Sequence record: OR352953.1
DNA: 64,000 nt
Direction: 5' to 3' (one strand)
Source of the DNA: Escherichia phage AV123
Shown: positions 28,249 to 31,932 of the stretch, in pieces
Position numbering within the stretch: the first letter of the stretch is position 1
Layout: each line of letters begins with the position of its first letter
The notes under the pieces: generated by a model
What the model saw: only the letters and a program-made list of their open reading frames with translations
The model's database searches: none
What the model was told of the DNA's origin: nothing
Program-made: the position numbers and the translations under genes

Positions 28249-28499
28249 TATTCATCCCAATCGCCGTTACGAGCACTTTCAAGAACCTTGACAACTTCTG
28301 CATACTCTACAGCTAAACCAGCACATACTTCAGCTTGTTTTGCAATTGCTTGTTTAAAGAACATAGCGATTGCAACACTCTGTGTTGTGTGAATGTTATC
28401 TGCTTTAGTTGATACATGAAGATCAAAATCTTCTTCATCAAAGGTGAGTTCCATAGTAACAATAAATTTCTCGGTCATAAAAATGCTCCTCTTAAACAA
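28248..28499 (-). CDS. hypothetical protein (83 aa)
   Basis: track ORF. Confidence 0.45.
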   Translation of the reverse strand: MFKRSIFMTEKFIVTMELTFDEEDFDLHVSTKADNIHTTQSVAIAMFFKQAIAKQAEVCAGLAVEYAEVVKVLESARNGDWDE

Positions 28500-29001
28500 A
28501 ATAGAAAGGTTGAGTTAAACCCAGCCTGTTTTTTGGGTCGTAGACGTACCAAGCATATGCTGTCTTATCAGTACCACCTGCAACAAAAGATGGTCGTTCA
28601 GAAAGAACAATTAAATTTGTTGGTGGATTCTGTTTATGGAATTCCCTTCGTTTAATAGACTCTAGGAACCCAAGACGCAACAAGTATATGCAAACGTCTG
28701 CTTCTTTTAAGCTCTTTTGCAAGAACTCAAGTGCAAGTTTGAATGGGGGATTTGTGATTATAATATCCGGCTTAGTATGCCATTCGTGGTTAAAATAATC
28801 TTTCCCTTCTTCTAACTCACAATATTCTGATCCTTCTGGAAAATGTTGATAAATTGCAGCAGCAGCGCCTTTACACGGTTCTGCAAAAATAAAACCTTCT
28901 TCTTTAAGGTTATTAAAATCTATTACACTAAATAATGCATTTATACATTTTTGTGGAGTAGGATAGTAATCAGTTGGTGGACGATCATACTTATTTGCCA
29001 C
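28492..29001 (-). CDS. phage N6-adenine (or N4-cytosine) DNA methyltransferase (169 aa)
   Basis: DYYPTP N-terminal motif and NPPF catalytic motif IV. Confidence 0.7.
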   Translation of the reverse strand: MANKYDRPPTDYYPTPQKCINALFSVIDFNNLKEEGFIFAEPCKGAAAAIYQHFPEGSEYCELEEGKDYFNHEWHTKPDIIITNPPFKLALEFLQKSLKEADVCIYLLRLGFLESIKRREFHKQNPPTNLIVLSERPSFVAGGTDKTAYAWYVYDPKNRLGLTQPFYFV

Positions 29002-29419
29002 TACTTAAAATCTCCTCTTTTGTGATTTCAGGGTCTTCTTCAAAAACCATAATATCTCTTAAGAACGTTAATTCTTCCATAGATACTGGTATTGTATCTT
29101 CTTCTGTTTTTCGTTTACATAAATCGTCAAGAAAGTTTTTAAAGTTTTCTGACAAATCGTAAAATTTTAACAGTTGATAATCACAGGAGGAGATCCTATC
29201 TAGTTCTAACATTCTTTCTAAGATATTTTCTGTGTTGCCGTACAACACACGAACTTCTCCGAAAGGGTTAACTGAATATTGTGAAGTTCTGAACCATCCC
29301 TTTTTAGATACAGTGTAACGCTGTTCTGCTAAACTTTCAATAAAATTTTTAGCTCTTTTACAGTTTTGTTCTAAAGAGTAGTAGGCTTTTTCTACAAAGG
29401 TTACAGGTACTGGTAACAT
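28991..29419 (-). CDS. hypothetical protein (142 aa)
   Basis: track ORF. Confidence 0.5.
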   Translation of the reverse strand: MLPVPVTFVEKAYYSLEQNCKRAKNFIESLAEQRYTVSKKGWFRTSQYSVNPFGEVRVLYGNTENILERMLELDRISSCDYQLLKFYDLSENFKNFLDDLCKRKTEEDTIPVSMEELTFLRDIMVFEEDPEITKEEILSSGK

Positions 29420-29459
29420 ATCTCCTCCTAATAACCCCCTTGCGGGGGTTTATACTAGA

Positions 29460-30113
29460 TTAATTATCAGAGGACACTTTATCAAGTTTTTCAGAGACTG
29501 TCAATACTTTTTCTTGTGATTCTTTCATTTCTGCTAAAATACTTTCAGCTTCATCACTATCAGGATCACCAGTCAACAGCATACTAATTAGTTGCTCCTT
29601 GCTGAAGTTCAGAATATCTTCCGCTGTTAACTCCAGTTGTTCTTCGATCTCTTCGATAAAAGTTTCACCGCCTGAAAAAGCATCTCGCAGTTTTGCAACT
29701 TCCATCGCTTCTTCTGGGGTTGCCCCAGCGTCTAAAGCTGCTAAAGCAAAATCTGCCCCACTACCAACAGCATAATAATCTTCAGTTAAAGGATATGCTC
29801 GCGTTGGATTGTTACCCTCGTGCATATAAATTTTACCGTCTGGGTGAACAACTAATGCCACAAACTCTTCATCTTCTTTATCAGGATCTGACTGGATCAC
29901 CAAACCTGGGATTGTCTCTTGTGCTGCTTGGCATTGTAAGTTTTGTTCGAACCAAGAAAAGAAAGTCAGGATAGAAGACAGACGTCCTGCACCACCAACA
30001 AGGTAATCCCCAATTTTACGCACTTTCTTGAAATTTAAAGTGTCTACACGACTACCTACTGTTACTTTACCATCAGATAGAATTTTGTTATGTGTTGCAA
30101 TAATTGTTGTCAT
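29460..30113 (-). CDS. HslV-like Ntn-hydrolase peptidase with acidic C-terminal extension (217 aa)
   Basis: MTTIIA N-terminus (Thr nucleophile after Met), NFKKVRKI, VGGAG, AVGSGADFALAA align with E. coli HslV motifs; AGGAGG RBS. Confidence 0.65.
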   Translation of the reverse strand: MTTIIATHNKILSDGKVTVGSRVDTLNFKKVRKIGDYLVGGAGRLSSILTFFSWFEQNLQCQAAQETIPGLVIQSDPDKEDEEFVALVVHPDGKIYMHEGNNPTRAYPLTEDYYAVGSGADFALAALDAGATPEEAMEVAKLRDAFSGGETFIEEIEEQLELTAEDILNFSKEQLISMLLTGDPDSDEAESILAEMKESQEKVLTVSEKLDKVSSDN

Positions 30114-30604
30114 TGTACTTCCTCCTGTAGTGTTTTAAGGACTGCTTTACCACCGCTTACATATTTACGGAGGTAATCAATAGCTCTTAGTGTTTCTTTA
30201 TCCACAAGAATTTTATTAGTTCTTGTCAATGGATGATTCAGTAAGTCACTGCAATTTCTTACTAACATAGATTTCTTGTGAAAGATACTGCTAAGAAAAA
30301 GAAGTTTAGAATCTTCTTCATCAATCAGGAGTAATTCTGAATTAGACCCAGCTACATTTATTATACACTCAAACAAGCCTTCTTGACTATCAGATAATTC
30401 CTGGTAATATTTAGTTAGCCAATCCTCTCCTTTTAACCAACTAAAAAACATCTGAACTTTTTGCAAAGTTGTCATGTTCTCTAAACGAAGAGATATTTCT
30501 TTTTCAATCTTGTCAATATAAATCTGTCTAAACTCATTCGGCTTAACTAAGCCAGCTTGATAGCATTCATCAATACCATTGCGATCAATCTCAATTAGCG
30601 TCAT
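30110..30604 (-). CDS. hypothetical protein (164 aa)
   Basis: track ORF. Confidence 0.55.
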   Translation of the reverse strand: MTLIEIDRNGIDECYQAGLVKPNEFRQIYIDKIEKEISLRLENMTTLQKVQMFFSWLKGEDWLTKYYQELSDSQEGLFECIINVAGSNSELLLIDEEDSKLLFLSSIFHKKSMLVRNCSDLLNHPLTRTNKILVDKETLRAIDYLRKYVSGGKAVLKTLQEEVQ

Positions 30605-30640
30605 TTAACCTCCATAATAGGCATCCTTGCCTTGTAATTA

Positions 30641-31393
30641 TTAATATACTTCCGTGATGAACTGAGACAAACGGGAACGTTGGTTATCAGCAGTTGTCAT
30701 TTCAACATAACCAATAAAATCTACAATAGCTTCCCTTTCTCCTTCTTCGTTAATAGGAACAACACGATCTAACAAATCACCTAACCCGTTAGCTCTTCGT
30801 TTAATTGCATATGTTTGATTAACATCGCCCATAATGACAATACGTGTATTAAGACCTGCTCGCTCAAGGAGAAGTTTTACTGTGTTTGGTGACATAAGTT
30901 GAACTTCATCAATAAGAATAATGCTGTTATCCCACGTAGCACCTAGTGCATAGTTCGGAATATTAAGTTCAATTTTGCCACTTGCAATATCGTTTTCCAA
31001 TTTATTTGCAGTCATAAACTGTTGGAAAATTCTTTTAGTTGACTCGTAGTGTGCTGCTAGTTTATCAGTCTTATCTCCAGATAAGAAACCGATTTGGTCA
31101 TCACCTACTTCTGTCGGGTTTTTAAGGAAAATCAACTTTCTGAAGTCACCAGCTTTAAGCATTTGCAATGCTTTCCATAGTGCTGTTGTCGTTTTTCCTG
31201 TTCCTGCTGGGGCATTAACAATGGTTAAATCATTCCAAACCATGCTTCTTACAATAGCTTCTTGATTCCCAACAGGGGTAAATTCATCAAGACGGTAATC
31301 ATCATTTCCTACTGCTTTAGCCGCATAACGACTGGCACGTTTGTCATCATTGGCTGTTGATTGACGACGAGCCTTTGCGGTTTTATTTCCCAT
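30641..31393 (-). CDS. phoH: PhoH-like P-loop ATPase
   Basis: APAGTGKTT Walker A and PhoH-like overall layout. Confidence 0.8.
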   Translation of the reverse strand: MGNKTAKARRQSTANDDKRASRYAAKAVGNDDYRLDEFTPVGNQEAIVRSMVWNDLTIVNAPAGTGKTTTALWKALQMLKAGDFRKLIFLKNPTEVGDDQIGFLSGDKTDKLAAHYESTKRIFQQFMTANKLENDIASGKIELNIPNYALGATWDNSIILIDEVQLMSPNTVKLLLERAGLNTRIVIMGDVNQTYAIKRRANGLGDLLDRVVPINEEGEREAIVDFIGYVEMTTADNQRSRLSQFITEVY

Positions 31394-31410
31394 GTTTGCA
31401 CTCCTTATAA

Positions 31411-31429
31411 AAGGGGCTTTCGCCCCTTT
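31411..31429 (-). terminator. intergenic GC hairpin AAGGGGCTTTCGCCCCTT (terminator-like)
   Basis: identical to hairpin at 20126 and 44498; T-runs on both sides. Confidence 0.5.
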
Positions 31430-31431
31430 GT

Positions 31432-31932
31432 TTAGTTATAAGCGTCTAATGTTCCAGTTTTAAGCACCTGAATTACACGCTCTGCGCGATTAGGCGTTTG
31501 GCGATACCATTTACTTTTACGTAAATTTATAGAGGCTTGAGTATAATATGAATTACTCACTAAAGTCAAGCTATTTTTGAAAGATTCTGCACCTTTCAAT
31601 CCCATTTGAAATACCATATTAATAATAGCCATTTTACGATTAGGACTTACTTTATCGTAAATAGGAGATAATATGGTGCTTGAATGGATTTGTTGTATCG
31701 CTTTCTTTACGTCACTCTCAAAGATTCTTCTAGCTTCCGCTTCAGTAATAACTCCATTGGTTTTTCTACCTACTAAGTTATCAAGAATGCGTATAGCTTC
31801 TGCTTTATCTTTGAGTTTTGTCAGAAGGTGTCCAATACCAACTGTCCAATACCCTTCGGTATCAGGATATACAGTTAGCTTTAGTCCTTCATCAAAACGT
31901 AACATATCAAACACATCAACTACTTTAGCCAT
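31432..31932 (-). CDS. e: T4-type lysozyme (endolysin, glycoside hydrolase family 24)
   Basis: MLRFDEGLKLTVYPDTEGYWTVGIGHLL, INMVFQMG and SKWYRQTPNRA closely match T4 lysozyme. Confidence 0.9.
   Translation of the reverse strand: MAKVVDVFDMLRFDEGLKLTVYPDTEGYWTVGIGHLLTKLKDKAEAIRILDNLVGRKTNGVITEAEARRIFESDVKKAIQQIHSSTILSPIYDKVSPNRKMAIINMVFQMGLKGAESFKNSLTLVSNSYYTQASINLRKSKWYRQTPNRAERVIQVLKTGTLDAYN

Follow-up and report, generated by a model that had tools for sequence, protein, structure and literature searches.

A long-form proteasome/HslV-like hydrolase in a phi92-like Escherichia phage

Does a phage peptidase that resembles HslV depend on the HslU unfoldase of its host, or does it act without one? 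The question is raised by a gene in a 64,000-nucleotide stretch of Escherichia phage AV123 (sequence record OR352953.1), referred to here as the window. A preliminary description, made from the sequence alone, had proposed that the gene encodes an HslV-like threonine peptidase that either borrows the host HslU or forms a self-compartmentalised protease. The gene is the orthologue of Phi92_gp058 and is called gp058 below; its locus is organized as follows.

30110-30604, minus strand: upstream open reading frame, the gp059 orthologue (164 aa); its stop codon and the gp058 start codon overlap
30120-30126, minus strand: strong ribosome-binding site AGGAGGA, 6 nt 5' of the gp058 ATG, read from the sequence
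29460-30113, minus strand: coding sequence of gp058, a 217-aa proteasome/HslV-like Ntn hydrolase (Phi92_gp058 orthologue; PHROG 1040), from the list of open reading frames
29436-29448, no strand assigned: GC-rich palindromic hairpin within the 40 nt that separate gp058 from the next gene, a match to a terminator-like consensus

The start codon is ATG, and its overlap with the gp059 stop reads ATGA. Escherichia phage phi92 and other genomes of Justusliebigvirus match the window at 99% identity, and an AGGAG ribosome-binding site is annotated at the same place in the phi92 record. Phi92_gp058 is listed in RefSeq as 'peptidase HslV family' with the note 'putative 20S proteasome', and other records carry the labels 'putative proteasome component' or 'HslV family peptidase'. 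The motifs that had drawn attention to the protein are all found, namely MTTIIA (residues 1-6), NFKKVRKI (27-34), VGGAG (39-43) and AVGSGADFALAA (115-126). The observation is confirmed and the gene is genuine. It is not novel, because it is annotated in phi92 and its family has been described (Fuchs et al. 2021); gp058 is an already known object.

Several features of the flanking DNA were also recorded. GC-rich palindromic hairpins lie at 29436-29448, 30619-30632 and 31410-31429, in the gaps after the gp058, PhoH and lysozyme genes, respectively. All three scored as terminator-like on the plus strand (3 found against 1.6 expected); within a run of minus-strand genes they might act in processing or stability, or as bidirectional terminators. 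Downstream of gp058, on the minus strand, a 142-aa open reading frame with no assigned function (28991-29419; PHROG 15078) shares an 11-nt overlap with that of a 169-aa DNA methyltransferase (28492-29001; PHROG 799). A 267-aa protein of Escherichia phage VEcB (P0043) combines a PhoH Pfam match with 100% identity to 71% of gp058, and this PhoH/gp058 fusion is probably an annotation or frameshift artefact.

Profile searches and structural modelling place gp058 in the proteasome-beta/HslV superfamily, with an Ntn-hydrolase fold. An HMM search, the check proposed in the preliminary description, gave 25 bits with the Pfam Proteasome family PF00227, just above its gathering score of 22.4, and an E-value of 9.2e-62 with PHROG 1040 ('peptidase HslV family') over residues 1-212. 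HslV from T. maritima (1m4y) was matched with E-values of 9e-8 for the single sequence and 5e-12 for the family profile; 20S beta5 subunits were the second-best profile matches in the PDB, over residues 107-169 of gp058. An AlphaFold2 model of the single chain, built on 24 relatives, has a mean pLDDT of 82 and adopts the HslV/20S beta fold. In a Foldseek search of the PDB with this model, HslV chains ranked best (E about 1e-9 to 1e-10; TM 0.65-0.68, normalised by the length of the target). Beta subunits from archaea and eukaryotes came next, together with BPH, and the probability was 1.00 for both HslV and 20S beta chains. The Pfam score, the fold and the seven catalytic residues described below all agree with membership of the superfamily.

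The similarity to HslV itself is more distant. Identity to E. coli HslV is 29% over 127 aa, and with the NCBIfam HslV equivalog models NF003964 and TIGR03692 the protein reaches 33.3 bits against a cut-off of 137 and 31.1 bits against 157.75, respectively. Because these scores fall far below the cut-offs, gp058 is a member of the superfamily and not an HslV orthologue. The 'HslV-like threonine peptidase' of the preliminary description can be retained in the sense of a superfamily Ntn Thr hydrolase, and dropped in the sense of an orthologue.

The active site was mapped by aligning gp058 with E. coli HslV (MG1655) and the beta subunit of T. acidophilum. The canonical numbering of the latter was borne out in the alignment. 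The elements assigned in this way are listed below.

30108-30110, minus strand: codon 2, the predicted nucleophile Thr1 of the mature protein after removal of Met1, from conservation and alignment
30024-30026, minus strand: codon 30, equivalent of the catalytic Lys33, invariant in 32 relatives and aligned with HslV and 20S beta
29757-29765, minus strand: G-S-G motif, residues 117-119 (Ser129 of 20S beta, Ser124 of HslV), invariant in the family
29667-29687, minus strand: RDAFSGG, residues 143-149 (equivalents of Asp166, Ser169 and Gly170), from conservation and alignment

Residues T2, D14, K30 and G43 fall on T1, E/D17, K33 and G47, and S118, D144, S147 and G148 fall on S129, D166, S169 and G170. 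T2 aligns with Thr1 of both reference proteins, and the RDAFSGG segment with QRDSASGG of the T. acidophilum subunit; in the same alignment the D166, S169 and G170 positions are occupied by Cys, Thr and Asn in E. coli HslV. Among 32 relatives, the most distant of which is 40% identical, K30, G43, S118, D144, G148 and G149 are invariant, and conservation reaches at least 90% for M1, T2, T3, D14, R143 and S147. The M1-T2-T3 start does not vary in one family alignment (A1), and in another (A3) its conservation is 90% or more. The residues typical of HslV, a Thr after the initiator Met together with Asp17, Lys33 and Ser124, are also present, and the protein has no propeptide. The alignments show that gp058 carries the full set of predicted 20S-type active-site residues. 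Loss of Thr1 or Lys33, which had been named as grounds for abandoning the peptidase assignment, was not seen: both are intact, as are Asp17, Gly47, Ser129, Asp166 and Ser169. Methionine aminopeptidase removes Met before Thr, and from this known specificity Met1 would be cleaved to expose Thr1.

The closest relatives of gp058 were sought in an exhaustive HMMER search with a profile of its clade against 1.84 billion cluster representatives. The search returned 8,036 matches at E ≤ 1e-3, 2,251 at E ≤ 1e-10 and 62 at E ≤ 1e-30. The 62 representatives in the innermost group are 155-350 aa in length and mostly long forms. The next shell is dense and consists of proteins of 137-160 aa with E-values of 1e-20 to 1e-24 and scores of 88-100 bits, whereas solved HslVs reach 37-49 bits with the closely similar A1 profile. 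The short relatives that were sampled begin with MTT, lack the apical helix H2, have a short connection from helix H1 to the following strand and end right after the last core strand; an RDxxSGG-like motif is usual among them. All six short relatives checked, and three longer ones, belong to PHROG 1040. One short relative is encoded on a phage-like contig of 54 kb among primase, HNH and terminase genes. Many phage proteasome-like models are also found in BFVD, including Caulobacter phage proteins of 131-146 aa with TM values of 0.81-0.87.

These short proteins resemble the PPH group, which was described as proteins of about 140 residues without H2 in Caudovirales (Fuchs et al. 2021, PMC8665760). 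gp058 shares with PPH the origin from a tailed phage, the absence of a propeptide and, in the predicted model, the absence of H2; at 217 aa it exceeds the PPH length. Judged by sequence, gp058 fits a long form of the ~140-aa PPH-type proteins (PHROG 1040), and its nearest relatives fit PPH by description.

The apical region of the protein, where HslU would dock, was analyzed in the AlphaFold2 model with DSSP. One long helix, H1 (residues 45-67), is followed by a loop (68-84) and a strand (85-89).

29862-29912, minus strand: acidic loop IPGLVIQSDPDKEDEEF, residues 68-84, net charge -5, in place of H2 and the pore loop, from DSSP on the AlphaFold2 model

No apical helix H2 was found between H1 and the strand, as judged from a single-chain model in which the pLDDT is 68 for residues 71-80. 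Loop residues D81 and E82 are at least 90% conserved. The pocket of HslV that receives the C-terminal tail of HslU is formed by Phe54 and Phe57 of H1, Ala79 and Lys80 of H2, and Gln114 (PMC6429459). At the H1 positions of this pocket, Phe54 is replaced by L49 and Phe57 is kept as F52 in gp058. There is no H2 in the model, and the pocket residues 79 and 80 are therefore without a counterpart. The two-apical-helix pocket of HslV is not found in the predicted model.

The C-terminal side of the protein extends well beyond the peptidase core, which ends at approximately residue 155.

29463-29648, minus strand: acidic C-terminal extension, residues 156-217 (62 aa), net charge -12, from charge and conservation

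Mean column conservation is 0.50 for residues 156-185 as compared with 0.21 for residues 186-217, and helices are predicted in the model at 164-169, 172-181 and 188-213. The core is thus followed by two short, moderately conserved helices (LTxE....SKEQL) and then by a variable distal tail. All 32 members have acidic tails, with lengths of 33 to 224 aa; the net charge of the whole gp058 protein is -23. The acidic extension had been noticed from the sequence and is real, although it measures 62 aa and not the ~40 aa given at the time. A SAP/HeH-like DNA-binding motif in the tails, suggested by eye, had no Pfam support in eight long-form relatives and was discarded; no Pfam family at all was matched by these tails. 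Four metagenomic long forms (P0061, P0063, P0069 and P0071; 274-379 aa) carry an extra C-terminal module, W..N.G..PV ... W.W ... ILKW+L, which in P0061 and P0069 is preceded by a Cys-rich, zinc-ribbon-like segment. Neither the module nor the Cys-rich segment has a match in Pfam.

The absence of an HslU gene from the window, noted in the preliminary description, was borne out by tblastn, which gave no match at E ≤ 10. The complete genome of the sibling phage PaulScherrer is about 98% identical, and the window is matched there at 93-99% across eight blocks. An HslU gene nearby in the full genome had been named as an observation that would speak against the proposal; none was found in PaulScherrer (best E 1.7). 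Among 50,697 phage records, HslU matches occur in 4 Escherichia phage records, as compared with 106 that carry the gp058 gene, and HslU-like genes do occur in some jumbo phages. An hslU gene of the kind that accompanies hslV in an operon or genome is thus missing for gp058 from the window and from the sibling genome.

Other candidate partners were considered as well. The sibling genome (MZ501100.1) encodes at 79408-80535 (L006: 29408-30535) a 375-aa AAA ATPase, bas60_0109, annotated as 'FtsH-like protease', about 7 kb beyond the window start. It scores 39 bits with PF00004, belongs to phrog_2376 ('ATPase') and is the sole unfoldase-like candidate in that genome. phrog_2376 is found in 379 phage records, many of them from phages of Gram-positive hosts without the gp058 peptidase clade, and among Vibrio records at most 6 have phrog_2376 as compared with 12 that have a peptidase of the clade. 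bas60_0109 was rejected as a dedicated partner because its family is far wider than the clade, common in large myoviruses without the peptidase and absent from at least half of the clade-bearing Vibrio phages, and because its PDB matches are weak. PhoH was rejected too. The order lysozyme-PhoH-...-peptidase is shared by phi92-like phages, FBKp34, VnaP and S4-7, and no PhoH gene was detected in the fetched flanks of the peptidase gene of Aeromonas phage TS9 or Vibrio phage 1.121.O; a shared genome backbone explains this pattern, and PhoH is itself no unfoldase. In several distant lineages (window 30641-31932; L003, L011, L012 and L008/L009) an endolysin gene, usually together with PhoH, is found close to the peptidase gene, and a CHAP/PG_binding gene stands directly upstream of a related family of ~180-aa proteins in metagenomic contigs of ~100 kb. 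This proximity to endolysin and PhoH may be backbone synteny only.

The remaining candidate is the upstream neighbour, gp059, which is translationally coupled to gp058 through the ATGA overlap. It is present in 133 records, all from phi92/phAPEC8-like phages and relatives such as FBKp34, and adjoins gp058 wherever this could be checked among them; no gp059 homologue was detected beside the Vibrio and Aeromonas relatives of the peptidase. Its model (pLDDT 93.7) is all-helical and has no informative structural neighbour. gp059 is a possible lineage-specific partner of gp058. A PADLOC search returned no defence-system match for gp057, gp058 or gp059.

The position of the gene bears on the stage of infection at which the protein is made. 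gp058 is surrounded by genes for PhoH, an endolysin, methyltransferases, a Ser/Thr phosphatase, Sir2 and nucleotide metabolism. Because it is placed among replication and nucleotide-metabolism genes, it is probably made with the early or middle genes. As a phage-encoded peptidase, gp058 might be taken for the prohead protease of head maturation. Such a role is extremely improbable, since another gene of the sibling genome, flanked by the portal and scaffold genes, is annotated as 'putative prohead protease' and gp058 lies on the opposite strand among non-structural genes, more than 100 kb from the head genes by record coordinates. The text of a 2026 paper on the phi92 virion structure does not mention gp058.

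We favour the reading that gp058 is a non-structural Ntn Thr hydrolase, probably made early or midway through infection and most likely independent of HslU, with a probability of roughly 60%. Host methionine aminopeptidase would strip Met1 to free the Thr nucleophile, and the conserved active-site residues suggest that the protein would be an active hydrolase in the infected cytoplasm. Independence of HslU is suggested by the model because H2 is replaced by a conserved acidic loop, and by the genome because the phage encodes no HslU. The acidic, length-variable C-terminal tail is a likely targeting or regulatory element. The 'self-compartmentalised protease' of the preliminary description is a possible form of such an enzyme. 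No study of the activity, processing, oligomeric state or expression of gp058 or of any PPH-type protein was found in the searchable literature. For the other orphan homologues BPH and Anbu, no physiological role or substrate is known to have been established.

The borrowing of host HslU is disfavoured by the same evidence. If gp058 docked on the host ATPase, it could form a hybrid protease with new substrates, or titrate HslU away from HslV. That the closest solved relatives are HslVs, that the MTTI... N-terminus is HslV-like and has no propeptide, that Phe57 of the H1 pocket is kept as F52 (with Leu for Phe54) and that the phage has no HslU of its own would all suit such docking, and HslU is present in every known host of the clade (Escherichia, Klebsiella, Vibrio and Aeromonas). 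The explanation is nevertheless unlikely, given that gp058 falls more than 100 bits short of the HslV equivalog models, shares only 29% of the 127 aligned residues with E. coli HslV, and lacks H2 with Ala79 and Lys80 in the model, as does its closest family, the ~140-aa phage proteins. The text of a Keio-collection screen for host genes on which the V5-like phage LL12 depends makes no mention of hslU or hslV, which is weak evidence in the same direction. A different possibility is that gp058 is active without being degradative, as a connectase-like transpeptidase or ligase, a single-site processing enzyme or a non-protein amidase. Archaeal connectase is described as a proteasome homologue acting as a monomeric protein ligase (PMC7980362), and several of the new homologues may not form rings (Fuchs et al., PMC8665760). 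Moreover, loss of H2 and extra C-terminal domains are unusual for a ring protease, and the neighbouring genes (methyltransferases, Sir2, Ser/Thr phosphatase and PhoH) act on host or phage macromolecules. We consider a non-degradative role improbable, as gp058 has no connectase-type helical insertion between S3 and S4 and retains the complete degradative 20S residue set, including RDxxSGG.

It is very unlikely that gp058 has no catalytic function and acts as a mimic, poisoning or capping HslV, HslU or a different complex of the host, with active-site residues kept for structural purposes. The seven catalytic positions and the MTT start vary little or not at all among relatives of 40% identity and above, and also in the ~140-aa relatives at ~32%; this is the pattern of an enzyme under selection for catalysis. 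What would fit a mimic is the strongly acidic character of the protein, with its net charge of -23 and acidic tail, as acidic phage proteins are often mimics or inhibitors. BPH and Anbu, which are not known to have clear peptidase activity, also count in favour of a mimic. Returning to the HslU-independent hydrolase, a more specific version of it is that gp058 and gp059 form a self-contained two-protein module without an AAA+ unfoldase, in which the tail, gp059 or both would pick one or a few proteins of the host or the phage to be cleaved or ligated while the host is taken over. This proposal is tentative and rather unlikely; if true, it would give a viral proteasome homologue an assigned function for the first time.

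Overall, the interpretation given in the preliminary description is partly supported. gp058 is no new object, and the finding makes no advance past the existing annotation; the role of a viral proteasome homologue is nonetheless a genuine question. In the searchable literature we found no paper that gives any of the phage HslV-like or PPH proteins a function, and proteasome homologues are widespread in tailed phages, as judged from the 2,251 cluster representatives at E ≤ 1e-10, some of which may be HslV-like proteins of cells. With a phi92-like phage, E. coli offers a tractable system in which an unfoldase-independent protease, an HslU hijacker and other enzymes such as a ligase could be told apart.

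A comparison with known systems shows which features of gp058 are shared and which set it apart. HslV (ClpQ), the peptidase of bacterial HslVU, forms a dodecamer of two hexameric rings that is activated by HslU and ATP. It is the best-matching solved structure and sequence family, and both proteins are compact and without a propeptide, with an N-terminal Thr after Met, Asp17, Lys33 and GSG. Unlike HslV, gp058 has no H2 and no adjacent hslU, and possesses a 20S-type RDxxSGG motif and an acidic C-terminal extension. The 20S beta subunits (Thermoplasma beta and eukaryotic beta5) have the same fold, seven active-site residues and RDxxSGG, and their C-terminal helix aligns with the post-core helix of gp058, in the MAFFT alignment only. 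By contrast, gp058 is much smaller than these subunits and has no propeptide, alpha-subunit partner or H2. BPH from Thiobacillus (PDB 5ovs/5ovt) is, like gp058, an orphan HslV-like protein, but keeps H1 as well as H2 and fits the gp058 model less closely (TM 0.43-0.55). Orphan HslV-like phage genes without HslU have already been noted, for example in the Salmonella jumbo phage pSal-SNUABM-04 (PMC7823757). Some jumbo phages of Erwinia and Salmonella encode HslU-like ATPases, whereas phi92-like phages encode none. RPC (PMC8665760) resembles gp058 in being related to PPH and in having a C-terminal extension, but was reported from Proteobacteria and not from phages. PPH proteins, like gp058, are phage-encoded, begin with MTT, lack a propeptide and H2, and keep Thr1, Asp17, Lys33 and Gly47; gp058 goes beyond this plan in its conserved two-helix segment, its variable acidic tail and the greater length of the acidic loop that follows H1.
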